Source of the DNA: a virus
Taxonomy: Duplodnaviria > Caudoviricetes
Strand: one strand, 5' to 3'
DNA: 29,902 nt
IMG/VR virus record: IMGVR_UViG_3300017540_000272
Location: 1-29,902 of that record
The notes beneath the pieces were generated by a model. That model saw only the letters and a list, made by a program, of their open reading frames with translations, was not told the origin of the DNA and did no database searches. The position numbers and the translations under genes are program-made. Each line of letters starts with the position of its first letter. Positions within the stretch are counted from its first letter, which is position 1. This document shows, piece by piece, positions 1,992-13,829 of this stretch.

Positions 1992-2064
1992 GTCTCCGTA
2001 GCTCAATTGGTAGAGCGCCGGTCTCCAAAACCGGAGGTTGCAGGTTCGAGCCCTGCCGGATTCG
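1992..2064 (+). tRNA. tRNA-Trp(CCA) with two acceptor-stem mismatches; CCA end not encoded
   Basis: D-arm GCTC-AATTGGTA-GAGC; anticodon arm CCGGT-CTCCAAA-ACCGG (CCA at 2025-2027); T-arm GCAGG-TTCGAGC-CCTGC; discriminator G. Confidence 0.85.
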
Positions 2065-2168
2065 CGAACGCGCTGCGCGTCTATCGAGGCCCGGCTGAGC
2101 CCGCGTATGCGAATCAGCACACATTCTTGCCCGCGCCACTCGATCAGCACACCACACACAACCGCGAG

Positions 2169-2381: not shown

Positions 2382-2405
2382 TCGCTTGTAGTATGTGGAT
2401 ATGCT
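2378..2405 (+). promoter_or_regulatory. Putative sigma-A promoter of the TA operon
   Basis: TTGATC-16 nt-TATGCT upstream of the SD GAGGA. Confidence 0.4.
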
Positions 2406-2421
2406 TGCGAGGACGGCTGCC

Positions 2422-3060
2422 ATGGATGACATTATGAGCATCCCGATCTACTCGCAATCCGAAGTCGCATCGATTCTCGGTGCTCCACAGTCGTCGCTGC
2501 AACGTTGGGCGAGTGGCTACCGGACGACACACGGCACACTGATGCCACCGATCATCACCGCGGAGAGCGGTCGAGGCTTCAAAGTTCCCTTCGTAGGTCT
2601 CGCTGAAGCGTTCATTGTGCGCGCCTTTACGCGTGCCGGAGTCCCGCTGCCGCGCATCCGAGAGACAGTGGAAGTACTCCGCAAGGAGATCGGGCTAGAG
2701 AATGCCTTAGCCAGCGAAAGGCTCCAAACTGACGGGGCCGAGATCTTAATGAATTTCACGGACGGTGACACGCGACTCGTGGTGGTGCGCAACAAGCAGG
2801 CAGCATTCGGGGAAATCGTGAATGCTCATCTCAAGCAGATCGACTACTTCGACGGCTTCGTCGGCCAAGTCCACTTCCCAGATCGGAAGATCTTCGTGGA
2901 CCCCCGAGTCAACTTCGGGCAGCCAACCGTTAAGGACATTGGTGTGCGCGTTTCCGACATAGTGGATCGAGCCCGGGCCGGCGAAGACAGTGCGTCGCTT
3001 GCGCAGGATTTCGGAATGCCAGTGCAATCAGTTCAAGAGCTTCTTCTTACCGCTTCATAA
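2422..3060 (+). CDS. VapB45-like (Rv2018-like) antitoxin: N-terminal HTH plus C-terminal DUF433
   Basis: IYSQSEVASILG..SSLQRW HTH, F.GLAEAFI, and VDPRVNFGQP..IGVRV.DI..R.RAGE...LAQDFG (DUF433 pattern). SD GAGGA precedes ATG 2422. Confidence 0.85.
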   Translation: MDDIMSIPIYSQSEVASILGAPQSSLQRWASGYRTTHGTLMPPIITAESGRGFKVPFVGLAEAFIVRAFTRAGVPLPRIRETVEVLRKEIGLENALASERLQTDGAEILMNFTDGDTRLVVVRNKQAAFGEIVNAHLKQIDYFDGFVGQVHFPDRKIFVDPRVNFGQPTVKDIGVRVSDIVDRARAGEDSASLAQDFGMPVQSVQELLLTAS

Positions 3061-3068
3061 GAGATACC

Positions 3069-3467
3069 TTGACGACATTCTTTATCGACCGGAGCCTCGG
3101 CGGGCAGCTCATTCCGCATGCACTGCGAGCCTCGGGATGGGATGTCGTCACGATGGCAGAGCGCTACGGTCATGACGTTGGCGAGCGGCTTGAGGACCCT
3201 GACTGGATTCGAGATGCATCCGAGAACGGCGAAGCGATTCTCTGCAAAGACAAGATGATCGCGAGGCGTCCTATCGAAGCACGCACCGTGCACATGTGCG
3301 ATGCTCGTGTCTTCGCCATGGGGAGCGGAATTCTGACCGGACAGTCAATGATTGAGCGAATCATCGCTCACGAGAAAAGGATCATGCAATTATGCTCAGC
3401 AAAGGGGCCGTTCGTTGCGCTGATCCACGAAGACAAGGTAGTGCGCACCAAGCTCGGCTACCCATGA
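3069..3467 (+). CDS. VapC45-like PIN-domain toxin
   Basis: FFIDRSLG..L..GWDV, DPDWI and AILCKD acidic motifs typical of this PIN subgroup; immediately downstream of the DUF433 antitoxin. Confidence 0.85.
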   Translation: MTTFFIDRSLGGQLIPHALRASGWDVVTMAERYGHDVGERLEDPDWIRDASENGEAILCKDKMIARRPIEARTVHMCDARVFAMGSGILTGQSMIERIIAHEKRIMQLCSAKGPFVALIHEDKVVRTKLGYP

Positions 3468-3677: not shown

Positions 3678-3800
3678 ATGTTCAAGTGCCCTGAATGCCC
3701 GGCCAGGTACACGTCCGAGCTTGCCGCTGAGGAATGCGGCGAACAGGATCGCCTCGAAGCATTGCACGCACGACAAATGCTCCGGGCCCGCGGGAAATGA
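3678..3800 (+). CDS. 40-aa CxxC microprotein (not in ORF track)
   Basis: GGGAG SD. Translates as MFKCPECPARYTSELAAEECGEQDRLEALHARQMLRARGK; the stop overlaps the HNH start (ATGA). Confidence 0.65.
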   Translation: MFKCPECPARYTSELAAEECGEQDRLEALHARQMLRARGK

Positions 3801-4099
3801 GCGGTTGGCAGCAGCGCCCCACGGACAGGCGCGCGACACTCCCCCGCAACTGGACACAGCTACGCCTTGCAAGATTCCGCCTCGACGGGTTCCGGTGCAC
3901 CGCGATACGCGCAGACACAGGCGCACGATGCGAGGCCCCAGCAACGGACTGCGACCATGTGGGCGAAAGGCTCGACCACCGCATCGAGAACCTACGATCC
4001 TTGTGCAGTTGGCATCACAAGCAGGTCACCGCGCAACAGTCCGCACAGGCCCGTAAACGCAAAAAGCCCCAGAAACAGAAACACCCCGGCATCATCTGA
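3797..4099 (+). CDS. HNH endonuclease, terminase-associated type
   Basis: LPRNW..R..DGFRC..C..ATDCDH..DHRIENLRSLCSWHHKQ.T..HPG, the typical actinophage packaging HNH pattern. Confidence 0.9.
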   Translation: MSGWQQRPTDRRATLPRNWTQLRLARFRLDGFRCTAIRADTGARCEAPATDCDHVGERLDHRIENLRSLCSWHHKQVTAQQSAQARKRKKPQKQKHPGII

Positions 4100-4116
4100 C
4101 ACCGGGGTGTTTTTTC
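4079..4116 (+). terminator. Terminator between the convergent HNH and leftward module
   Basis: AACACCCCGG/CCGGGGTGTT stem followed by a T run. Confidence 0.7.
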
Positions 4117-4123
4117 TGTGCGC

Positions 4124-4363
4124 TCACTTCTTCGCGCTTCGGGACTGTTTCGATGGCACGGCAATACGGTTCCCTGAGCCGCGACGGGCACTGTTCCACC
4201 GGTCGATCGTCTCCTCGGACCAGCCGCGCGTTGCCCGCGGCCCCTCTCCGACGATCACGTCCGGCTTCGGAAACGAAACCAGCTTCTCGTATGAGCTGAG
4301 TTCTCCCATCTGCATGCCGACGCGCTCAGCAAACATTTTCTTCGAGTAGTACCGTTTCGCCAT
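4124..4363 (-). CDS. AlpA/excisionase-like HTH DNA-binding protein, probably leaderless
   Basis: YYSKKMFAERVG..SSY..FPKPDVIVG..RGWSEETIDRW. The ATG lies 6 nt downstream of a CATGAT -10 and has no SD. Confidence 0.8.
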   Translation of the reverse strand: MAKRYYSKKMFAERVGMQMGELSSYEKLVSFPKPDVIVGEGPRATRGWSEETIDRWNSARRGSGNRIAVPSKQSRSAKK

Positions 4364-4369
4364 GCTTCC

Positions 4370-4399
4370 ATCATGCGCTACGGATAACTCAATCTGCAA
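4370..4399 (-). promoter_or_regulatory. Promoter (TTGCAG-18-CATGAT) overlapped by operator TCATGCG-N6-ATAAC
   Basis: The operator copy at 4371-4388 matches the three copies at 9477-9566. Confidence 0.65.
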
Positions 4400-4401
4400 G
4401 C

Positions 4402-4557
4402 TCACGGTATTGGCTCCCATCTGTACTGTTCTGCAACTTCGGGTCGGTCGTTCATCAGCGCCGCGCCGGCTTCGGCCTCCGCAACGGTTTCAAAGGGCGC
4501 ACGCCTGAACGCTTCACGGTCGTACACGTACTCGCGTATCTGCACGTACCGGTTCAT
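4402..4557 (-). CDS. Small hypothetical protein
   Basis: MNRYVQIREY...; ATGA overlap with the upstream gene. Confidence 0.55.
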   Translation of the reverse strand: MNRYVQIREYVYDREAFRRAPFETVAEAEAGAALMNDRPEVAEQYRWEPIP

Positions 4558-4871
4558 GCTGACATCCTTACGAGGCGTTCCAGTACTCGCTTCGCGTGGT
4601 CGATGTGCTCGCGGGTTGCGTCGAATGCCGCTGGGAGGTCGCGGCGCAACCATACGAGTTCCCCGCGTGCAAGCTCTGCAATGCTCTTGCTTGGTTGCGT
4701 TTCGCGTCTGTCTCGGAACGCAACCAGGATCGGGTTCGGGTTGTTGTCGAACTCCGGGCGGGGCTTGTGTTCAAAATCTCCGAACTCTTGCCGAGCGTAT
4801 CGACCGCCGCTATTCGGATTCACCCACTGCAGCGGGTCGGTGTTGGTCTTCTGTGAGTTAAACATGGTCAC
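4554..4871 (-). CDS. Hypothetical protein (start 4871 or 4865)
   Basis: GGAGG SD and overlapping stop/start with its neighbours. Confidence 0.6.
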   Translation of the reverse strand: MTMFNSQKTNTDPLQWVNPNSGGRYARQEFGDFEHKPRPEFDNNPNPILVAFRDRRETQPSKSIAELARGELVWLRRDLPAAFDATREHIDHAKRVLERLVRMSA

Positions 4872-5068
4872 GCCTCCCTCGCTTCCCACTCGGTGATATG
4901 CTCGCTCGCCGCTTGCGCGACGCTTGGGCCGTAGGATCGCCCGATAACTTGGCTCGGCATGTCGGGATCGTCAGGGAACCAGCACGTCTCAATTGCGCCG
5001 TCATGTGGCAGTCTGACGGTGCTGTATTCTCCGTTGATGCGGCGCTCAATGACTGGCCGGTCGTTCAT
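4868..5068 (-). CDS. Hypothetical protein
   Basis: AGGAGGT SD and ATGA overlap. Confidence 0.65.
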   Translation of the reverse strand: MNDRPVIERRINGEYSTVRLPHDGAIETCWFPDDPDMPSQVIGRSYGPSVAQAASEHITEWEAREA

Positions 5069-5337
5069 GCACCCACCTCCTTCTGCTTGATCTTGCAATG
5101 CTCGATGTAGTCGGCGAGGTCTTCGGCGTAGTCCTCTGCCGCTTCGGGGTCACCCTCGGCCCATTCCTCGATGAGAATCTGCGCGAGGTCGTGACGGCCT
5201 GCAACTGCGAGCAGATTTGCCAGCGCCTCGGCCTCTGGGTAATTCAGCGACTCATGGAACGAGTCGGCGGGGGTCATGCGCTCGTAAATGCTCACCCACT
5301 GATCGAGCGCAGCGGATACTTCTAATTGCTCTTGCAT
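5065..5337 (-). CDS. Acidic helical hypothetical protein
   Basis: AGGAGG SD; D/E-rich sequence. Confidence 0.7.
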   Translation of the reverse strand: MQEQLEVSAALDQWVSIYERMTPADSFHESLNYPEAEALANLLAVAGRHDLAQILIEEWAEGDPEAAEDYAEDLADYIEHCKIKQKEVGA

Positions 5338-5340
5338 GGC

Positions 5341-5673
5341 TTACGCCTCCTTCGTCTTTTCGTCCCATGCACGCCACAGCCTCATAGCGTGCTCGCGTTC
5401 TGCAAATGCTGCCGCGCGTCTCGTGCGATGCTGCCCGACTTCATCGCGGAAACATGCGCTCTCAAACTTCCCGCTCCTTGTGTGGCGAGCGCTCACAATG
5501 CACCCGCATCCGCCTTGCGGGAAAACGATGTTTACGACGTAGCTGCCGCCGTGCCGCCACGGGCTATAGGCCGGCTCCCAGTCGTCGCGCTCCATTTCGG
5601 CGCGCGCCTGCAACCGGCGCTGCATATTCTCGCGCTCGATACGCGCTACGCGCTCCGCGTTCGTCTCAGTCAT
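5341..5673 (-). CDS. Hypothetical protein
   Basis: GGAGG SD and TAATG overlap; contains PWRHGG.YV..GCGC. Confidence 0.7.
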   Translation of the reverse strand: MTETNAERVARIERENMQRRLQARAEMERDDWEPAYSPWRHGGSYVVNIVFPQGGCGCIVSARHTRSGKFESACFRDEVGQHRTRRAAAFAEREHAMRLWRAWDEKTKEA

Positions 5674-6083
5674 TAGTCAGCCTCCACTTCTTCCCACGGG
5701 CGTTCGCGCTCAATGTCGTCAAGCATCGGCCCGGCGTAGCGGTCCCAGAAGTCATCCGGGTTTTCCTCGATCCACTGAGCGGCGCGCTTGTAGGGCTCTT
5801 CATCCTCAACGCCCCAGTTGTTAGCGCGATCCAAGCAGGCAATAATCGCCGCTCCGTGTAGCGTGCCGTCTGCGTTCGGGTCGCGCTGTGCGCGGTCAGC
5901 TTCGACTGCACGTGCAACTAGCTCACGTAACGCCGTCTCCACGTTCACAGAATCCCCGTTGGCCAACTCCCACGCGAGCGTCGTAATCGCAGACTCATCA
6001 ACCAAGTCCTCGAACACCGGCACATCATGCGCCTGAATAACTTCGTGCGCGGCACGTTCCGCAATCTCATCTATCGGCATCAT
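5673..6083 (-). CDS. Acidic hypothetical protein
   Basis: AAAGGAG SD before ATG 6083. Confidence 0.7.
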   Translation of the reverse strand: MMPIDEIAERAAHEVIQAHDVPVFEDLVDESAITTLAWELANGDSVNVETALRELVARAVEADRAQRDPNADGTLHGAAIIACLDRANNWGVEDEEPYKRAAQWIEENPDDFWDRYAGPMLDDIERERPWEEVEAD

Positions 6084-6094
6084 GGCCGCTCCTT

Positions 6095-6271
6095 TCACGC
6101 AATCCCCACAAGCGGGGCAAGAATCAAAGCAAGCGGCGTGATCGCCGCGAACGCTGCAACCGACAACGTCACGCCCGCAACATCCGCGAGCACAGCACGC
6201 CGCGCCCTGCGACGCTGCAACACCTCGGCCGTTTCACACAACGGCCACTCACTGCCAAGCATCCGGCTCAC
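6095..6271 (-). CDS. 58-aa membrane protein (not in ORF track)
   Basis: GTGA overlap with the upstream gene; an Arg-rich patch followed by the hydrophobic C-terminus VAGVTLSVAAFAAITPLALILAPLVGIA. Confidence 0.55.
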   Translation of the reverse strand: MSRMLGSEWPLCETAEVLQRRRARRAVLADVAGVTLSVAAFAAITPLALILAPLVGIA

Positions 6272-6516
6272 AGCGCCACCTCGAACGCGTGCGCTGCAAC
6301 TACCTGCCAGAACTCTCCCGGCTCAACCGTGCAATAGAAGCCTTGCCGGTTCAGGTGCGTCACACCGCCGGCGTCAACCCCGTCCTCGAACGCAATCACC
6401 CTGTCAGCGATAGCGTCAACATCGAACTCGGCACGCGCGTCCGCAACCATGCCGGACGCCTCGATCGGTGCAATAACCTCAGCCTGCACAGCCTCAGGCT
6501 TTGTCGAATAGAACAT
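6268..6516 (-). CDS. Hypothetical protein
   Basis: Start follows the repeated motif ACCGGGAAGGGGTT; contains EFDVDAIAD..FWQVVAAH. Confidence 0.7.
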   Translation of the reverse strand: MFYSTKPEAVQAEVIAPIEASGMVADARAEFDVDAIADRVIAFEDGVDAGGVTHLNRQGFYCTVEPGEFWQVVAAHAFEVAL

Positions 6517-6624
6517 GATGAACCCCTTCCCGGTCCGTTGTGTGTTTGTGTGCGGTCTGCAAACCGCCGTGCGCTCGCGAGCGCTTGCAACTCGCCGCCC
6601 GGCTCGTCCCGGTAGCGCCACCGC

Positions 6625-7701
6625 CTAAGCGGCTTTCACGTACTCAGTCAGCGACTCGATAGGCGCGCCAGCCTTCGCAAGCTTCCACGCCTCGCCTCGT
6701 GGCTCGATACCCGCGGCCCGCAACTGCGCCGCAAGCTCCTTGTTGCTCGCCTTCGCTTGCAACTTCTCAGCCTTCACGGACTGCTGAACCTGAACGTCAC
6801 CCTCGCCGAGCATCACTCGAGCGAGCGCGTCAGTCACGTAACAGGCCTTCTCGTAAGCAACCGCGAGCAGCTTCTCGTCGCGCTTCGCCCAGTCAGCCGC
6901 GTACCGGACGCTGCCCTTCGCAAGCTCAGTCTGACCTGCAAGCATCATGACACCGAACGCGACCGACTCAGCCTCAGCCTCAATCTCGCCACGGTGCGCC
7001 TGATAGTCGCGCTCGTCGTTCTCACCATGCAAGATCGCGTGTGCAATCTCGTGAGCGAGCGTCTCGACCGCGGCCCAACCATCGAGCCCGCCATGCACTG
7101 CAATCGTGCGAGCCGCGTGAATCGTCCAACCGTTCTCCCGCATGTCACGAGTTGCCCGCGTAACCCGCCAACCCTGGCCCGTGATCCACGACTCGAGCCG
7201 ATCCCATGCAACACCCGCGTCGCCGTCTGTGAGCGCGGGTGCCGCTGTTGCAACCTCACCGGTCACCCCGTCAGCGTTGCGAACGTCAGCCGCAATATAG
7301 GTGCGCTCGCCACGAAACACGGTCCGCTTGATCGCACCAGGCGTGCCCGGCTTCACCCGGTTGTCGTTCTCGTCAACCCACAACGGCACCGGCTTCGACC
7401 AGATCGCAATCGGGTTACCCTCAGGCACGAACCCGCTACGCGCCCAAACCGTGCGCGGCGCAATTTCACCCTGCAACGCAACCAGCGCCCGCCCGATCGC
7501 ATCTTCAAACTCGACACCCTCGTCGCAATACCGCTGTACCAGTTGCGCCAAGATCAGCGCCTGATTCGTTGGAGAGTACGCCGGGTGCCCTGCCGCAATC
7601 CTGAGAGTGCGCGCCGCCATAGCCGCCGGCCAGTTCGCCGGCGAAGCAATGTAATCGGCGACCATGCCCGCAAACTCTTTCGTGCTCGGTACAGTAGACA
7701 T
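6625..7701 (-). CDS. ArdC-like protein: N-terminal ssDNA-binding domain plus zincin-like HExxH metalloprotease domain
   Basis: YSPTNQALI..Q and W...G in the N-domain; TLAHEIAHAILH..EAEAESVAF..Y...W in the C-domain. This matches ArdC/polyvalent metallopeptidase architecture. Confidence 0.8.
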   Translation of the reverse strand: MSTVPSTKEFAGMVADYIASPANWPAAMAARTLRIAAGHPAYSPTNQALILAQLVQRYCDEGVEFEDAIGRALVALQGEIAPRTVWARSGFVPEGNPIAIWSKPVPLWVDENDNRVKPGTPGAIKRTVFRGERTYIAADVRNADGVTGEVATAAPALTDGDAGVAWDRLESWITGQGWRVTRATRDMRENGWTIHAARTIAVHGGLDGWAAVETLAHEIAHAILHGENDERDYQAHRGEIEAEAESVAFGVMMLAGQTELAKGSVRYAADWAKRDEKLLAVAYEKACYVTDALARVMLGEGDVQVQQSVKAEKLQAKASNKELAAQLRAAGIEPRGEAWKLAKAGAPIESLTEYVKAA

Positions 7702-7840
7702 AATCAAACCCCTTCCCGGTTTGGTTCACGCGCCCGGGTGACTGCAATCACGCCGGGCGCAATCCTGTTTCATGCGCAACCGCGCCGTGCCCTAGTGCCG
7801 CTGCGACGCGGCCACGCCTTACGCGCTAGGGCTGCAACCC

Positions 7841-7978
7841 TCACCACAACGAGGGCGCAACATCCGTCCGTGGCACGAACGAATCGAGCACGCCGCCATT
7901 CAGCGGGTCGCAATCTTCGACCTCAAGCAGCGGCGTATCGTCTGCCGTCACAGTGTCCGGCAACCAGCCCGCGCTCAT
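7841..7978 (-). CDS. Small acidic hypothetical protein
   Basis: GGAGG-TTGCA-CC-ATG start and ATGA overlap. Confidence 0.5.
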   Translation of the reverse strand: MSAGWLPDTVTADDTPLLEVEDCDPLNGGVLDSFVPRTDVAPSLW

Positions 7979-8145
7979 GGTGCAACCTCCGGATCCAGCC
8001 CCGCATGATTCACGTGCCAATCCCAACGCGCCAGGTAGTCGTCGCAATAATCGCGCTCAACATGACCGCAACTGCACCGGTACGCGTACGTGTAATTAGC
8101 TCGCTCGCCCTCGTTCCAGACACGCAATATTTTGTGCTCGCTCAT
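7975..8145 (-). CDS. 56-aa His/Cys microprotein, possibly Zn-binding (not in ORF track)
   Basis: MSEHKILRVW..YRCSCGH..WHVNH; GGAGG-TTGCA-GT-ATG start; ATGA overlaps at both ends. Confidence 0.65.
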   Translation of the reverse strand: MSEHKILRVWNEGERANYTYAYRCSCGHVERDYCDDYLARWDWHVNHAGLDPEVAP

Positions 8146-8351
8146 ACTGCAACCTCCTCGCGAGCCAGAAGCGCCGCCGCGAGCCGTTCCGCGCCGCGCT
8201 CAGTGGCGAACCCGTTGTAATGCAACGCATACCCGAGATTCTGCGGCGCGAACTCCGCAACCAGCTCACGTAGCAGCGCCTCAGACTCAGCAGGGTTTCC
8301 CCCGCCGCGTACTCGCCGCGCAATTCCCGCCGCGATAATCCGTTCGCTCAT
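8142..8351 (-). CDS. Hypothetical protein
   Basis: GGGGG-TTGCA-TC-ATG start and ATGA overlaps. Confidence 0.6.
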   Translation of the reverse strand: MSERIIAAGIARRVRGGGNPAESEALLRELVAEFAPQNLGYALHYNGFATERGAERLAAALLAREEVAV

Positions 8352-8509
8352 GATGCAACCCCCCTGAACATGCCCGCGAGCTCGCCCGCTGTCGGCATCT
8401 CGAACGCGGCCGCATGACACTCAATGCAACGCTCACCAGGGAACATGTCGATCCGCATCCCCTCGCAACCGCAACCCTTACAAGTAAACGGTGTCGTAAA
8501 CGGGTTCAT
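8348..8509 (-). CDS. 53-aa zinc-ribbon microprotein
   Basis: FTCKGC..FPGERCIECH (CxxC..CxxC); GGAG upstream. Confidence 0.65.
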   Translation of the reverse strand: MNPFTTPFTCKGCGCEGMRIDMFPGERCIECHAAAFEMPTAGELAGMFRGVAS

Positions 8510-8559
8510 AATCTCCAACCTTTCTGCAACTCCCGGCCATGCCCAGCGCATAGCCCCAG

Positions 8560-8607
8560 TGGTGACGCCCGGACTCGAACCGGGCCGACGCCTGAACGCT
8601 CGCCACC
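8560..8607 (-). ncRNA. Intergenic mini-tRNA element (acceptor stem plus T-arm, no anticodon arm)
   Basis: GGTGGCG/CGTCACC 7-bp stem, CCCGG-TTCGAGT-CCGGG T-arm, then A-CTGG. Confidence 0.6.
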
Positions 8608-8615
8608 TTGCGCAA

Positions 8616-9155
8616 CTAGAACGCAACCCCCCATTCGGCAGACTCAGACTCTGCCGCGTACGCTTCACGCATCTCCGCACGCTCAGCAACTTTCATGGCC
8701 TTGAAGTCCGCAAACGTGGTCCACTTCCAAACCCCCTCGTCATGCAACCGTTGCATCTCCTCGGTCAGATGAGGCCACGCCTGATGCAATGGTCCCTTGC
8801 AAAACTCGGGCCTACGCGCCGCGGACGGCTTCCAGAAGTCATCCCATAACATGCCAGGCCAACCCATAGCGTCCGCAATACGCGCCCGCATCGAATCCAC
8901 CAAGTCCGCATACTCGGCACGATCAGCCTGATCCGTAGCCGAGGCCTTACGCGATGCAATCACCGGCTTCGGTGCAACCGCGGGCACGTCCCCCGCATCT
9001 TTCAGGATCGCGGTCCCGGGAACGCAACGCGCCACCATGTACGCGTTCGCCCGGTGCACCCATTCCATGTACGCCGGCGAACCCACAGGCTCACCCGCCG
9101 GCTTAGGCTCAACATTCGCCGCATACCAAGCGCGACGCTCAGACTTGACACTCAT
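8616..9155 (-). CDS. Hypothetical protein, first gene of the leftward terminal module
   Basis: AAAGGGGA SD; Trp-rich C-terminal half (AWPHLTEEM..W.WTTFADF). Confidence 0.7.
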   Translation of the reverse strand: MSVKSERRAWYAANVEPKPAGEPVGSPAYMEWVHRANAYMVARCVPGTAILKDAGDVPAVAPKPVIASRKASATDQADRAEYADLVDSMRARIADAMGWPGMLWDDFWKPSAARRPEFCKGPLHQAWPHLTEEMQRLHDEGVWKWTTFADFKAMKVAERAEMREAYAAESESAEWGVAF

Positions 9156-9203
9156 GTCGTCCCCTTTCACTCAATCGACTAGCGGCCAGCAAACCGCTAC
9201 CAG

Positions 9204-9254
9204 TGGACGGCCACGGACTCGAACCGTGCTCATGGCGCACCATGCGCGCCGCCC
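9204..9254 (-). ncRNA. Mini-tRNA element in the operon leader
   Basis: GGGCGGC/GCCGTCC stem with G3:U wobble, GCGCA-TGG-TGCGC hairpin, CACGG-TTCGAGT-CCGTG T-arm, then A-CTGG. Confidence 0.6.
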
Positions 9255-9470
9255 TAAACGCTCGCACTGCACCTAGCCCGATTGGCCGTGTCTGGCAAGC
9301 GTTGGCAGTCTCTCCACTGCCGTTTCATCCATCCGCTGTTGAGTTGGTGCCATATGGGCGAGGTTCATGCGCTAGACCGTTGGCGGTTATTCATCCGAAC
9401 CGGGATTCTCACCCCGGCCGTTGCTACCGATCCGCTCCGCCTCCGTCTCTCACTCGGTGGCGATGAACCA

Positions 9471-9566
9471 ATCATGTCATGCGGCCCGCATAACCCACAA
9501 GTCATGCGCGCCACATAACCCACCGAAACCCCCCAAACTTCCGCGGAATCATGCGGCAGAAATAAT
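9471..9566 (-). promoter_or_regulatory. Leftward promoter (TTGTGG-18-CATGAT with TGn extension) and three operators TCATGCG-N6-ATAAY
   Basis: Operators at 9477-9494, 9502-9519 and 9549-9566; the first fills the -35/-10 spacer exactly. Confidence 0.7.
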
Positions 9567-9590
9567 TTTCGAAAGTGTACCCGCACCCGG

Positions 9591-9895
9591 GCGTGTCGCG
9601 GCGTGTCGCACCACTCACCAGCGCTCACACCCAGCCACACCCAGCCACCCTCAGGCTCACCCAGACTCGGCCAGACTCGGCGGCTCACGCTCACCACACG
9701 CCACGCGCACCACACGCCACGCCCTCACACACACCACACGACACGAGCGCGGACACACGACAGCATGCGAGCCACGCGCGCACGACGCGCACGACGCGCA
9801 CGACACGAGCGCGCGGACACGAGCCCACACACACGCGGACACACACGCGAGCACACACGCACACACGCGCACGTACACACGCGCACACGCGTCCC
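9591..9895. repeat. Low-complexity CA/CG-rich subterminal tract with short tandem repeats
   Basis: GCGTGTCGC x2, CACACCCAGC x2, CCAGACTCGG x2, GCACGACRC x3; a perfect 42-nt purine-pyrimidine alternation at 9851-9892. Confidence 0.85.
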
Positions 9896-9934
9896 ACTAA
9901 CCCCCCACAGGGGAACCCCCCGCCCCCCGCCAAA

Positions 9935-9985
9935 AGCTCCCCCGCAAGCGTTCTGCAGTATTTATTGCGCGCGGGTCTGGGGGGT
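9935..9985. other. Predicted cos/packaging site (3' overhang near CCCGCAAGCG)
   Basis: C-runs on the left and TCTGC..TGCGCGCGGGTCTGGGG on the right, just upstream of terS; strand composition flips here. The exact cut site is unknown. Confidence 0.55.
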
Positions 9986-10011
9986 GTTTTTGGATCGTGG
10001 ACTTGAGTCTT

Positions 10012-10054
10012 CCCGCTCCGACATGGATCGGGTTTTGCCTACCGACATGGAGGT
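10012..10054 (+). promoter_or_regulatory. Tandem C-GACAT-G loop hairpins over the terS SD
   Basis: CCGACATGGA occurs twice (10018 and 10042); the second hairpin contains GGAGG. Confidence 0.6.
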
Positions 10055-10059
10055 TTGTT

Positions 10060-10560
10060 ATGGCTGGTTATGGTCCGCCGCCGAAGGAGGATCGCGCTCG
10101 TAAGCGTGACACGGTTGTTCGTGAGCTTGTGAAGTCTGACGGGAAGATCGGTGGTTTTGATCTTCCTGATGATGTGCTGCCTCAGATTCGCGTGAATGGT
10201 GAGTTGCAGTTCGATGTGGATGGGAATCCTATTCGTGAGGAGTGGCATCCGCAGACGGTGCGTTGGTGGAATAACTGGCGGGAGTCTCCTCAGGCGACGC
10301 GCATGTTGACTGCTGTTGATTGGGACTACCTGCTGGATACGGCTTTGTTGCATCACCAGATGTGGATGACCGGCGGTAAGAACTCTGAGCGTGCGGGTGA
10401 GATCCGTATCCGGGTTGCTGGGTTTGGCGCGACGTATGCGGATCGTATGCGCTTGCGGTTCGAGATTGAGGTTCCTGAGGAGTTCGAGGTGGGTTCGAAC
10501 TCGAATGTTGCATCGATTGATTCGGCGCGCAGGAAGCGGGTTATTAACGGGGGTGCTTGA
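10060..10560 (+). CDS. Terminase small subunit
   Basis: MAGYGPPPK..R, WHPQT..WW..WR.SPQ, DW..L.DTA..H, E.R.R.A.FGAT..DR.RLR, the typical actinophage TerS pattern. Confidence 0.9.
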   Translation: MAGYGPPPKEDRARKRDTVVRELVKSDGKIGGFDLPDDVLPQIRVNGELQFDVDGNPIREEWHPQTVRWWNNWRESPQATRMLTAVDWDYLLDTALLHHQMWMTGGKNSERAGEIRIRVAGFGATYADRMRLRFEIEVPEEFEVGSNSNVASIDSARRKRVINGGA

Positions 10561-12323
10561 TGCCTCGCCGTTTGATTCGCAATGAGGAACTTCATGATCG
10601 CGAACGTTCGCTCGGTCATCTTGCTACGTGGTGGATTGAGGCGTTTGTTCGGCATGGGCGCGGCGATATTGCGGGTCAACCGATCAAGTATGGCGATGAG
10701 TATTACGGGTTCATTGTTGATTGTTACTCGCTTGATGCTCGTGGGCGTCGACTTTATGATTCTGCGTTCTTTTCTCGGCCGAAGGGTACTGATAAGTCGG
10801 GTCTTGCTGCGGCTCTGGTTTTGTTTGAGGCGTTTGGTCCGTGCCGGTTTTCTGGCTGGGCTGAGGGTGGCGAGACGTACACGTTTCTTGGGCAGACCTA
10901 CACGTATGTGAAGGGTGAGCCGATGGGTCGCCCGGTGAACCAGCCGGTGATCCGGATTCTTGCTACTGCCGAAGGACAGACCGGAAACGTCTATGACTCG
11001 GTCTATTTCAATCTGAGCGCCGAGGATGCTCCTTTGAATGCGCTGGTGAAGCTGTACGGCGTCGAGTGCACGATGACTCGAGTGACGATTGCGAAGTCGT
11101 CGGGTGGTGGAACTATTGAACCGATGTCGTCGGGTGCGTCATCTAAGGATGGTGGCCTTGAGACGTTCGTTGTGTTCGATGAGTCGCACCTGTATAACAA
11201 GCCTCGACTGAAGGATTTGCACGCGACGGTCACTCGTAACCTGCGTAAGCGGAAGAAGCTCGCTGAGCCTTGGTATATCGAGACCACGACGATGTATCAG
11301 CCTGGTGAGGAATCGGTTGCTGAGGAAACGTATCATCTGGCGGATCTGATCGCTGAGGGTCGGACACGGCGTAAGCGCATGTTGTTCGATCACCGTTGGG
11401 GCGAGCTCGGTGATCCGATGCAGGGTGAGCTTGAGTCCGATGCCGAGTATGAGGCCCGCGTGCAGGCTGCGTTTGCTGACGCGTACGGTGACGCGGCTGA
11501 GTGGAACTCGGTCGAGGACATGCTGGATGCGTTCTTCGATCCCCGTAACAACCTGAATGATCAGATTCGTTATTTCTTGAACTCGCTTGTTGAGGCGAAT
11601 AATTCGTGGTTGACGGTGAAGATGTGGAACCTGATCGGGTTGTCTCATCGTGCGAAGCTTGCGAATGAGTCTGGCGAGAAGCTTGATTGGCGTCCGCCGC
11701 GCGAGGGTGACAAGATCACGCTCGGTTTCGATGGTTCTCGTTCTGATGATGCGACGGTGCTGATTGCTTGTCGTGTCGATGACGGGTATGTGTGGCCGAT
11801 TCTGATTGAGGAGCCGCCGGATGCTGAGGAGGCGAAGTCGTGGACTGTCGACCAGTTGAAGGTCGATAAGCGTGTTCGTGAGACGTTCGAAAAGTTCGAT
11901 GTGGTGGGGTTCTTTGCGGATCCCCCGTATTGGCAGGACTACGTGGATGCGTGGGATCGTGATTTCGCTGACTTGGTTGAGGTTCATGCCACTCGCGATA
12001 AGAGTTTCCATTTCTATACGAATAACCACAAGGCGATGGCGATGGCGGTTGAGCGTGCTCATACGGCTATTGGTGAGGGGCGTGTGATTCACGGGAATGA
12101 TCCGCAGTTCACTCGGCATGTGCTGAATGCGCGTGTGTGGGAGCGGAACACTGGCGATGTCATTGGTAAGGACAAGCGCGGGTCGAAGCACAAGATGGAT
12201 GCCGCGGTTGGCATGGTATTGGCGCTCGAGGCGCGTGCTCGCTATCTGGCGAAGGAACACAAGTCGGAAGATTCGTTTACGCCGTTCAACCCGAGGGGGA
12301 ACGCGTCGCGGCATAGGAGGTAG
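10557..12323 (+). CDS. Terminase large subunit
   Basis: Walker A variant RPKGTDKS, Walker B VVFDESH, nuclease motif LGFDGS..DDAT, and KMDAAV. Confidence 0.95.
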   Translation: MMPRRLIRNEELHDRERSLGHLATWWIEAFVRHGRGDIAGQPIKYGDEYYGFIVDCYSLDARGRRLYDSAFFSRPKGTDKSGLAAALVLFEAFGPCRFSGWAEGGETYTFLGQTYTYVKGEPMGRPVNQPVIRILATAEGQTGNVYDSVYFNLSAEDAPLNALVKLYGVECTMTRVTIAKSSGGGTIEPMSSGASSKDGGLETFVVFDESHLYNKPRLKDLHATVTRNLRKRKKLAEPWYIETTTMYQPGEESVAEETYHLADLIAEGRTRRKRMLFDHRWGELGDPMQGELESDAEYEARVQAAFADAYGDAAEWNSVEDMLDAFFDPRNNLNDQIRYFLNSLVEANNSWLTVKMWNLIGLSHRAKLANESGEKLDWRPPREGDKITLGFDGSRSDDATVLIACRVDDGYVWPILIEEPPDAEEAKSWTVDQLKVDKRVRETFEKFDVVGFFADPPYWQDYVDAWDRDFADLVEVHATRDKSFHFYTNNHKAMAMAVERAHTAIGEGRVIHGNDPQFTRHVLNARVWERNTGDVIGKDKRGSKHKMDAAVGMVLALEARARYLAKEHKSEDSFTPFNPRGNASRHRR

Positions 12324-13829
12324 TTGATGCTGGCTGATGCTCAGAATCCAGGGACTGATGATTGGTTTCTGGTCCAGATTGCTACCGAGATGGGCGCGCG
12401 TTTCGAGCGTCTTGCGTTGCTTGATTCGTATGACGATGGTTCGTGGGTTGTTCCTGTTGAGGCGGATCCTGCGAATCGTGAGGCCTATATGCGCCAGGCG
12501 GAGAGGGCGAAGCTGACTTTCGGGAAGACGATTGTCGACCAGAAGGTTTCGCGTATGAAGTTGCGCGGGTTTCGTACTGCTGCTGACGATGACGTGAATG
12601 GTGATCGTGAGGCGTCTCGCTTGATGAAGCTGAATCATTTCAAGACTCAGTTTCGTGAGATGCAGCGTTGGAAGACACTGTATGGGCAGGCGTACTTTGT
12701 GATCGGCATGGACGAGGTGAATGAGCCGTTCATCACGGCTCGGTCGCCTTGGCAGGTTGGCGTGAAGATGAACGAGCTTCGCCCGTGGTTGACGGACGCG
12801 GCCTTGATCATTTCTCGGGATGAGTTGAATCAACTGGATTTGTTGACGCTTATCCGGCCTGGCTATATGAGGGTTGCTGCGAAGGAGTCTCAGGAGCCTT
12901 CGATTCCGACGGATGGTACGCCCTGGGAGCCTGGTACCGACTGGGACTGGGTGTCGTCTACGGCGGTTACCTGGACTGAGCGGGTTCCGGTGGTGCCGTT
13001 CACGAACCCGGGCGGTAAGGGTGAGTTCGAGCCGCATTTGCCGTCGTTGGATCGGATTACTCAGGACATTCTTGAGCGGTTGACGATCACTGCGATGCAG
13101 GCGTTTCGTCAGCGTGCGATCGAGTCGGGTGATGATCCGCTCCCTGATGTGTGGCCGGAGGGTCACCCGCAGGCTGGCGAGCCGATCGATTACGACGACA
13201 TCTATAAGGCTGGCCCGGCAGCGTTGTGGTTGTTGCCTCAGGGCGCGAAGGTCTGGGAGTCGGCCCCGATCGAGATGTCGTCGTTGACGCTTGCTGAGAA
13301 GAAGGATCTCGAGCATCTTGCCGGCATTTCGGGTACGCCGCTGTATGCGTTCTCGTCTGATGTGCAGGGTTCTGCTGAGGGCGCGAAGCTGCAGCGGGAA
13401 ACGATCCGCTCGAAAGTGATCGAGGCTCGCGAGTTCGATGATGAGTCGCTCGCGATGTCAATGTCGCTGTTGTTCGAGGCGCATGGCGACCAGCAGCGTG
13501 CTGACCGTACAGAGATCACGACGATGTGGGGACATATCGAGTGGGTTTCGAAGGCCGATGTTGCGCCGGCGGCTGCGTCTGCGAAGCAGGGCGGCATGTC
13601 TCAGCGGGGCATTAACGAGCACATTTACGAGATGACGCCGGAGGAGCTGGAACTCGAGGCGAACAATCTGCGCGACGAACAGTTCCAGTTGAGCCTGATG
13701 AATGCGGGTGGTGGAGATGGCGCTTACGGAGCGGGCGGTTCAGCAGCACGCGAACCGGAAGGTTTCGATCATGGAACGCCTGATTCTGATTCTGCTGGGG
13801 CTGTGGAGGAACTACAACCGGTGGAATGA
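12324..13829 (+). CDS. Portal protein (SPP1 gp6-like)
   Basis: About 500 aa following TerL; VPVVPF.N..G.GEFE.H...DRI..QAFRQR, SAEGA. Confidence 0.9.
   Translation: MMLADAQNPGTDDWFLVQIATEMGARFERLALLDSYDDGSWVVPVEADPANREAYMRQAERAKLTFGKTIVDQKVSRMKLRGFRTAADDDVNGDREASRLMKLNHFKTQFREMQRWKTLYGQAYFVIGMDEVNEPFITARSPWQVGVKMNELRPWLTDAALIISRDELNQLDLLTLIRPGYMRVAAKESQEPSIPTDGTPWEPGTDWDWVSSTAVTWTERVPVVPFTNPGGKGEFEPHLPSLDRITQDILERLTITAMQAFRQRAIESGDDPLPDVWPEGHPQAGEPIDYDDIYKAGPAALWLLPQGAKVWESAPIEMSSLTLAEKKDLEHLAGISGTPLYAFSSDVQGSAEGAKLQRETIRSKVIEAREFDDESLAMSMSLLFEAHGDQQRADRTEITTMWGHIEWVSKADVAPAAASAKQGGMSQRGINEHIYEMTPEELELEANNLRDEQFQLSLMNAGGGDGAYGAGGSAAREPEGFDHGTPDSDSAGAVEELQPVE

Follow-up and report, generated by a model that had tools for sequence, protein, structure and literature searches.

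The window analysed here is the whole 29.9-kb record of a tailed virus, IMGVR_UViG_3300017540_000272 (29,902 nucleotides), and this text concerns an array of the short word GCAA (TTGC on the minus strand) that runs through several kilobases of it on one strand, upstream of the terminase genes. The late genes terS, terL, portal, protease, scaffold and tape-measure all lie on the + strand; terS (9997-10560, +; Terminase_7) and terL (10557-12323, +), both assigned by family match, define what is referred to below as the top strand and the left arm. Left of them runs a leftward operon of small genes (about 4124-9155), on which an HNH endonuclease gene (phrog_333; 3734-4099, +) converges, and a terminator-like 15-pair hairpin found by the hairpin scan (4079-4112) stands at the point of convergence, overlapping the end of the HNH gene. 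The operon gene adjoining HNH (4124-4420, -) encodes a small predicted winged-helix DNA-binding protein of phrog_597, with excisionase/MerR-like look-alikes, and the first gene of the operon (8616-9155, -) a protein of 179 aa without family. Between the operon and terS, 826 bases (9171-9996) are without family match, the open reading frames (ORFs) at 9365-9715 (-) and 9421-9900 (+) matching neither Pfam nor PHROG; GCAA occurs there 3 times and TTGC 2 times. The dense core of the array (6064-9030, word on the + strand) holds 65 GCAA, 50 of them YGCAAY, against 11 TTGC, 4 of them RTTGCR, which amounts to about one site per 46 bases.

The excess of one orientation had first been noticed by hand count in a sequence-only reading, and its figures hold: the + strand of 5600-9300 carries 71 GCAA against 11 TTGC, 62 of the sites being YGCAA and 12 CTGCAA, while the extended forms are counted at 53 YGCAAY versus 4 RTTGCR. 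GCAA density is 21-22 per kb throughout 6001-9000 and 0-11 in each remaining kilobase of the window; in the terminase region, where a spot check had seen no excess, it is 1, 0 and 0 per kb over 10001-13000. On the minus strand the word stands mostly between purines, as R-TTGC-R, a purine preceding 58 and following 62 of the 71 sites, and the information is limited to the six positions YGCAAY, with no further context within ±45 nt. The sites are randomly spaced; codon periodicity alone is seen, and no helical phasing. Zero-order composition leads one to expect about 13 GCAA in 5600-9300. Against a second-order Markov background, a control that had been proposed at the outset, 39.9 are expected and 71 observed, giving a z of 7.6 which is the highest of all 4-mers.

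As it was also claimed, the word is found in coding and intergenic DNA alike. Sixty-two of the 72 sites in 5341-9300 are coding and occupy all three frames (xTT-GCx 41, TTG-Cxx 11, xxT-TGC 10), and the other 10 are intergenic. The sequence-only reading had named a GTT/ATT-GCN codon-pair bias as what could undo it, and a synonymous-codon shuffle of nine genes answers this point, since the excess is kept (60 observed versus 31.0 ± 3.8, with a maximum of 42 in 2000 shuffles) and GCAA on the sense strand of the same genes stays at expectation (9 versus 8.5). Codon choice itself bends to the word: valine is GTT before alanine in 17/21 cases and elsewhere in 17/60 (Fisher p 6e-5), isoleucine is ATT before alanine in 15/17 and elsewhere in 9/24 (Fisher p 1e-3), alanine is GCA after xTT in 13/32 and elsewhere in 9/143 (Fisher p 4e-6), and T precedes TGC in 10/12 cases in array genes versus 0/7 in late genes. 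Given their proteins and late-gene codon usage, the genes of 6095-9155 should contain about 21 TTGC and contain 57, the genes of 4868-6083 being not enriched. The excess acts at the nucleotide level and is distinct from codon or codon-pair bias; codon-pair bias fails as an explanation because the excess survives the synonymous shuffle and is also present between genes and in + strand genes.

Relatives were sought among 58 IMG/VR loci and 28 genome loci. The relatives by TerL are prophages, of Leucobacter at 76-78% identity and of Microbacterium at 57-58%. All 12 testable loci with a TerL identity of at least 56% have the array (L003, which is the same as L062, L009, L010, L015, L059-L061, L064-L066 and L069), corresponding to 11 distinct relatives, and in each it forms a block upstream of terS on the terL-sense strand; in L002, L008, L011, L016 and L068 the upstream DNA is too short for the array test. 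A strict, unbiased scan of 51 loci for polar 5-mers returned GCAA words in 10 of them, namely the window and 9 relatives, the weaker blocks of L015 and L069 falling below threshold, and in 0 of the 39 remaining, more distant loci. The minus strand of the array and the coding strand of the late genes differ in TTGC per kb, at 22.2/5.0 in the window and 14.5/1.3, 14.0/0.5, 12.7/0.2 and 10.3/0.8 in relatives, and 30%-42% of all TT dinucleotides in the blocks sit within the word. When 13 loci are pooled (L003 being included twice, as L062), GCAA is counted 617 times on the top strand, 123 on the bottom strand and 123, scaled, outside, and the corresponding figures for TGCAAT are 87, 2 and 0.3. A probe made of a three-site spaced pattern was too insensitive for use across the collection, with 0-6 matches per array and 4 in 1.6 Mb of host DNA.

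The genes that carry the word have little in common. Just 3 of the 17 minus-strand proteins of the window that were tested have homologues in any relative, no gene left of HNH in the window has one, and the genes beneath the arrays are, as judged by homology, mostly unrelated between relatives. Among the 12 related array loci, 5 encode a homologue of the 179-aa protein, whose gene contains 10 TTGC versus 2.8 expected; all 5 are in Leucobacter and four of them are distinct (L003 = L062). The sole gene of the region that is specific to array phages is that of the phrog_597-like protein, found in 11/12 array loci and 0/74 others; none of the solved structures matches it significantly by sequence (the best E being 0.0013, over 17 residues), its structure model is poor (pLDDT 60.7) and the atlas look-alikes of HTH_17/MerR type are leads only. 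Where array parts are homologous and can be aligned, top-strand GCAA is retained at 294/416 sites (0.71), compared with 0.49 for all 4-mers, 30/85 (0.35) for the reverse TTGC and 0.13-0.50 for ten related control words, these figures coming from 14 pairs that are not independent. One-step precursor words, which would betray a mutation signature, show no consistent depletion across phages. Judging from this preferential retention, the array is kept by selection in relatives, and the idea of a distributed, oriented signal, for which conservation in relatives had been suggested as a check, gains support. Blastn of the array region against isolated phages gave no match, and in tblastn of TerL against isolated phages nothing exceeded 47% identity, which leaves no close isolate with mapped ends.

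A different polar word was seen in three loci with TerL at about 52% (L004, L028 and L031). CCACC stands there on the terL-sense strand over approximately 2.6-9.5 kb of each locus, with 44 sites versus 4 in the best 4 kb of L004, where the scaled late-gene figure is 6.5; the sites are dispersed and their orientation flips at about 9.6 kb, beside terS. This suggests that sister clades carry arrays of other words.

The polarity had been described as belonging to the coding strand, and here the description had to be changed. The relatives' arrays contain + strand genes whose direction is fixed by PHROG matches, HNH in all of them, phrog_1229 in L010 and an exonuclease in L009, and the word enters such genes as sense GCAA, clearly in relatives and weakly in the window. 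The HNH genes of 12 phages together have 64 sense GCAA where 29.5 are expected, and phrog_1229 of L010 has 8 versus 2.5, the exonuclease and helicase further left being not enriched. HNH genes of array phages contain 17 GCAA per kb versus 5.6 in those of 40 non-array loci. Given the protein sequence the enrichment is 2-3 fold and equal in + and - genes, and because + genes carry GCAA in sense at the same enrichment as - genes, the orientation follows the DNA strand as set by terS/terL and not the direction of the gene. One caveat is that a leftward transcript reading through the convergence point would give the same polarity; terminator scans at the convergence point of four relatives found no hairpin, and the window has its 15-pair hairpin there.

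Within the window the array is not uniform. Its weaker left part (3734-4653, word on the + strand; GCAA 11, TTGC 4) covers HNH and the two last minus-strand genes, with 5 sense GCAA in HNH versus 2.1 expected and 3 sites versus about 1 in each of the genes 4124-4420 and 4402-4653. Four genes inside the array show no excess (4868-6083, -; GCAA 7, TTGC 7), and we infer that they are likely a more recent insertion which the word has not yet overwritten. The left edge of the dense core is formed by two small genes (6095-6262 and 6268-6516, together 6095-6516, -) with 6 and 5 TTGC versus 2.1 expected in each, and further right stand a gene for a 358-aa protein (6625-7701, -; TTGC 21 versus 7.4 expected) and, after refinement of the gene starts, four small overlapping genes (7841-7978, 7975-8145, 8142-8351 and 8348-8509; 7841-8509, -).

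On the right, the array is followed by DNA that looks like a cos region. A conserved cos-like element of about 45 nt (9941-9985, +) borders a C+A-rich repeat field (about 9580-9900) on its right, and every relative has such a field between array and terS; within 9171-9996 there are also a 25-nt tandem repeat (9473-9522), 10-nt pairs at 9590-9609 and 9626-9655, and others. The element, conserved in array phages, is found across Leucobacter, Microbacterium and Kocuria prophages, and two IMG/VR contigs (L002 and L008) end at it. The core of the element finds a match in nt 6-36 of Arthrobacter phage Janeemi, a linear record of 43,877 bases; the E is only 0.2, but the match sits at the very end of the record, and in an alignment of the element with nt 1-36 of Janeemi the first base of that phage and the start of the L008 contig are no more than 3 bases apart. 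The terS and terL genes of Janeemi lie near this left end as its second and third genes, preceded by an endolysin gene, and HNH is the last gene at the other end. Because a distant isolated phage has its physical end where the element aligns, and two contigs end there too, the element is likely cos, with the physical genome end near 9951-9955 of the window. Of the 19 public runs that contain this DNA none is listed as RNA, and contigs from such runs extend across 8483-11828 and provide no molecule ends. The repeats of 9171-9996 beside it are likely terminase-binding or origin-like. With cos near 9951-9955, the array would be placed at the right end of virion DNA, and it ends 591-2289 nt left of the core in 10/12 phages (the window and 9 relatives), the core not being found by exact match in L015 and L066 and L062 repeating L003. 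The GC skew flips sharply at about 9500-10500, from about -0.2 to +0.25, and the AT skew flips too; the flip coincides with divergent transcription and is equally strong in low-GC L069 and weak in high-GC relatives.

Some further observations concern the same stretch. ARAGORN predicts a 448-nt tmRNA with a tag peptide at 9203-9650 (-), where Rfam has no tmRNA match with the E limit relaxed to 1; the minus strand has a T-arm-like stretch at about 9215-9225 followed by a 6-bp hairpin (9180-9199), and what precedes the leftward operon here may possibly be a gene for a small RNA or a fragment of tRNA-like form. The sole Rfam match of the window is a tRNA-Trp gene at 1992-2065 (+), found by ARAGORN and Rfam with 62 bits, and its presence accounts for a depth spike of about 15-fold at 2002-2668 in all four metagenome runs. 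A protein with HTH_66 and DUF433 adjoins a PIN_10 protein at 2395-3467 (+), a pair which resembles a toxin-antitoxin-type module.

The sequence-only reading had drawn attention to the word at the tips of hairpins and in the spacers between Shine-Dalgarno (SD) sequence and start codon, and had offered an ArdC-like protein as a binder which coats, translocates on or protects the DNA or RNA. The three hairpins do exist (6552-6567, with a 5-bp stem and the loop CTGCAA on the + strand, 7738-7751 and 7828-7841), yet the display of the word in loops does not exceed chance: 7/74 sites of the window lie in loops versus 4.3 ± 2.1 in shuffled-flank controls, and over all phages 50/566 versus 44.4 ± 5.8 for stems of at least 4 and 13 versus 13.1 for stems of at least 5. 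A loop-displayed signal of the boxB/nut type, or one acting in single-stranded DNA, was rejected on the basis of the counts over all phages. The word is indeed present in the SD-ATG spacers of three consecutive genes (starts 8351, 8145 and 7978), where the junctions 7978-7992, 8145-8159 and 8351-8365 share the form GG-TTGCA-NN-ATGAGCG with an ATGA stop/start overlap, which makes the preceding proteins end in V-A-x. Chance would hardly produce such a fixed offset in three junctions, which suggests that one coupling junction was copied; similar SD-word junctions number 0-3 per relative, and we read the spacers as one more tolerated site for the word.

As for the ArdC-like binder, the 358-aa protein matches Peptidase_M78 (E 2.7e-5) and phrog_87 only. 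No ArdC model matched in Pfam, PHROGs or NCBIfam, and its homologues are named ImmA/IrrE in their sources, so that the name does not stand. It has no relatives among viral contigs and no homologue in any of the 12 related array loci, and because of this absence it cannot be the common reader. An identical copy of it is found on a 141-kb contig, from which we take the phage to be probably temperate. Reading the word as a coat site on RNA is less economical.

What kind of reader would such a word have? Its random spacing and low information content fit a scanning enzyme better than a site-specific regulator, and a short, randomly spaced and selected word which keeps one polarity over 3-4 kb beside a DNA end leads us to propose a one-way reader moving along DNA. 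Tentatively, the best reading is that of a Chi-like end array for the hosts' AdnAB-type helicase-nuclease. The enzyme would enter at the free cos end, move along the DNA and read the word, the YGCAAY strand being by inference the one that ends 3' at that cos end, and the array would switch off, redirect or restrain the degradation of the DNA end by the AdnAB-type enzyme. The phage may gain by having entering DNA or cut concatemers protected and rescued through recombination, a benefit proposed for the phages LLS, MD8 and P1. All five host genomes examined have two adjacent ORFs of about 1100 aa with PD-(D/E)XK (AdnAB-like), and RecC was found in 0/5. Upstream of five relatives no annealing protein was recognised, most ORFs there being familyless and the left part of the window being cut; L009 has a phrog_284 exonuclease.

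The closest likeness comes from the cos phages LLS of E. coli, in which 20/23 Chi are on the top strand and clustered at the right end, and MD8 of P. aeruginosa, in which Chi counts 32 versus 0, on the top strand and toward the right end; P1 is described alongside them as a Chi-rich phage (Zheng et al. 2025, PMC12315714, in the portion available). In these phages as here, a short word runs through genes on the same strand toward the right, terminase-distal cos end, is carried by the top strand, which is the strand ending 3' there (at its predicted position in our case), and is selected independently of codon usage. The differences are considerable, for in LLS and MD8 the word is an 8-mer, the Chi of the host as established by experiment, which RecBCD reads and which occurs about once per 1.9 kb in LLS, whereas the array here is made of a 4-6 base word, about one per 46-69 bases, in hosts that are AdnAB-like without RecC, and it is a bounded block starting 0.6-2.3 kb from the end, its host genome having neither excess nor skew. 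That a helicase-nuclease of AddAB/AdnAB architecture can use a very short word is seen from AddAB of Bacillus subtilis, whose Chi is the five-base AGCGG as quoted in a preprint (10.1101/2021.07.08.451572); AGCGG is G-rich, and the part of the preprint available contains no link to phage end arrays.

Several observations weigh against a Chi-like function. In 800 kb of Leucobacter chromosome around dnaA (contig C1 of G001), in which GC skew confirmed the replichores, the frequencies of YGCAAY and of RTTGCR are both about 1.0 per kb, with no excess and no leading-strand bias, and when genes are separated by strand YGCAAY is about 20% commoner on the lagging strand (RTTGCR on the leading). A second prophage of the same host, unrelated and with a TerL identity of 30%, has no array, and the right 12 kb of Janeemi lack one as well, with 12 sites versus 12.4 expected, despite the cos-like core. 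The Chi-type words in the papers compared, as far as their available parts go, are all G-rich, and here the word of the 3'-ending strand is of C/A type. With about 20 sites per kb, the array is far denser than the Chi sites of LLS. No published Chi word for AdnAB was found in the literature search, and in the accessible text of PMC13000450 the whole word "Chi", the only form searched, is confined to the reference list. Our confidence stays low because the host is without the signal, the word is of C/A type, the array is lineage-specific within one host and its density exceeds that of LLS by an order of magnitude. The host test weakens the Chi-like reading without killing it, since over-representation in the host is, as one preprint argues in the part available, not a defining property of Chi. 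Apart from the phage word, the most skewed 8-mer of the host, CGGGGGAG, was counted 83 times on the leading strand and once on the lagging strand; it is unrelated to the phage word and appears like a KOPS- or Chi-like architecture word of the host.

If the enzyme of the host is not the reader, a protein of the phage could be. We entertain, with considerable doubt, that the array is not a host Chi but a lineage-specific directional DNA code, read at the cos end by an HNH-terminase complex or by the winged-helix protein; such a code would be a packaging, ejection or end-handling signal without described counterpart. The narrower form, in which the packaging machinery reads the word as a nick or contact site of a cos-associated HNH-terminase complex, or of the small winged-helix protein, we hold to be doubtful; the word would then mark the last kilobases before cos, for example by slowing or preparing the motor or by having one strand nicked. 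We know of no multi-kilobase packaging signal of this kind. The array is lineage-specific, being absent from the unrelated prophage of the same host, whose genome shows no sign of using the word, the HNH gene is within the array in 12/12 phages, the phrog_597-like protein follows the array in the loci scanned, and the word is on the strand running 5'->3' in the inferred packaging direction. Moreover, phage HNH proteins encoded adjacent to cos and terminase are strand-specific nickases with asymmetric one-strand sites of 3-7 bp and a function left open (Xu and Gupta 2013, PMC3592412), a likeness limited by the fact that the part of this paper available describes no array or enrichment and that its sites never contain the GCAA word. 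Non-array phages have homologous HNH genes too, in 40 loci, and L072 (Kocuria), like Janeemi, combines the core and a cos-adjacent HNH with the lack of an array, so that a cos of this type can do without the array. Common descent alone may account for the small protein occurring together with the array, and the low quality of the model of that protein adds to the doubt. A reader of the transcript is, in our estimation, unlikely: RUUGCR would be presented on the leftward early transcript, or on the non-template strand, to an RNA-binding or RNA-polymerase-associated factor, and the unit would run from a cos-proximal promoter region via the leftward operon into antisense HNH. In its favour, array and leftward operon occur together and are both missing from phages whose HNH sits directly at cos, every array gene of 6095-9155 in the window has the word on its sense strand, the word fills SD-ATG spacers in three window genes and occasionally in relatives, and the lack of a detected terminator hairpin in relatives makes read-through possible. 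Nevertheless, Microbacterium arrays extend 1-3 kb into + strand genes, the hairpin at 4079-4112 of the window should stop leftward transcripts, the cos-nearest part of the leftward operon lies outside the array in L009, L010 and L065, and loop display is at chance. The late genes have a weak trend in the same sense (TTGC 55 versus 37.4, z 3.7; L069, z 3.2), but high-GC relatives are without it (L010, TTGC 0 versus 7.6). A late-gene mirror array was considered and rejected, with L016 and L068 at expectation and the high-GC relatives at or below it beside the window and L069.

Replication offers another reader, and here we find the case quite improbable. The bottom-strand 5'-TTGC-3' would be a primase site on the lagging-strand template, with primers starting GCAA and forks leaving an origin in the repeat-rich region beside cos. 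Phage primase sites resemble the word in form, with a four-base core and one flanking base; the GC skew flips at about 10,000, at a stretch with iteron-like tandem repeats, and the orientation fits the lagging-strand template of a leftward fork. Yet transcription also diverges where the skew flips, and high-GC relatives show the flip only weakly; the array is confined to a block of 3-4 kb instead of extending over the genome, and within 10 kb the array phages share no conserved primase. Still less credence is due to a decoy or sink, as the sequence-only reading had also proposed for a host factor, in this case a host defence enzyme with an asymmetric short site, such as a Type III-like restriction enzyme, acting on the DNA exposed first. 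Type III enzymes need inversely oriented (head-to-head) sites and do not cut arrays of one orientation, and the array does adjoin the DNA end, but the avoidance of one orientation leaves a 10- to 60-fold enrichment unexplained and the same word is found in two host genera. The least tenable of all is a by-product of composition, codon-pair bias or strand-specific mutation with no reader. The bottom strand of the array is G- and T-rich and 41/62 coding sites share one frame, as such a by-product would have it, but the Markov and synonymous-shuffle controls fail to account for the excess, precursor words are not consistently depleted across phages, sites are retained above other 4-mers, similar words included, and the word is equally enriched, given the protein, in + and - genes; the shuffle, the enrichment in + genes and the site retention largely refute it.

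Actinobacteriophage genomes are known for asymmetric repeated words of fixed orientation, among which are the repressor stoperators of Cluster A mycobacteriophages. Others are the 18-bp intergenic repeats of Microbacterium phages, 8-10 copies in cluster EG and 12 in EC, described where clusters EC, EF and EG are compared (PMC7302621, in the part available). These repeated words are 13-18 bp long, number from a dozen to a few dozen, are almost all intergenic, stand at a fixed distance from gene starts and are oriented with transcription, whereas the array here has a 4-6 base core, 62/72 of its sites coding, no promoter partner and an orientation independent of gene direction. A -10 partner (TANNNT 16-19 nt downstream of the word) was found at 0/566 sites, and sites of the operator/stoperator type were rejected for the six-position word, the coding location, the missing -10 partner and the orientation that remains unchanged in + genes. 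Literature searches found no description of the YGCAAY word or of such arrays in Microbacteriaceae phages. End-clustered polar word arrays are, as a kind, known since 2025.

Arrays of this sort point to the genome ends and the strand polarity of uncultivated phages, and the recoding of phage genes needs to take account of them. Both Microbacterium and Leucobacter can be grown in culture, and array prophages are present in several named strains, so that a role of AdnAB would be directly testable. Should AdnAB be the reader, the word would become the first Chi-type signal for the enzyme of end resection in actinobacteria; should it be a phage protein, the word would represent a directional signal of a new kind next to cos. 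In either case, a one-strand word can be written by phages across several kilobases of genes that are unrelated, to the point of affecting the choice of amino acids.

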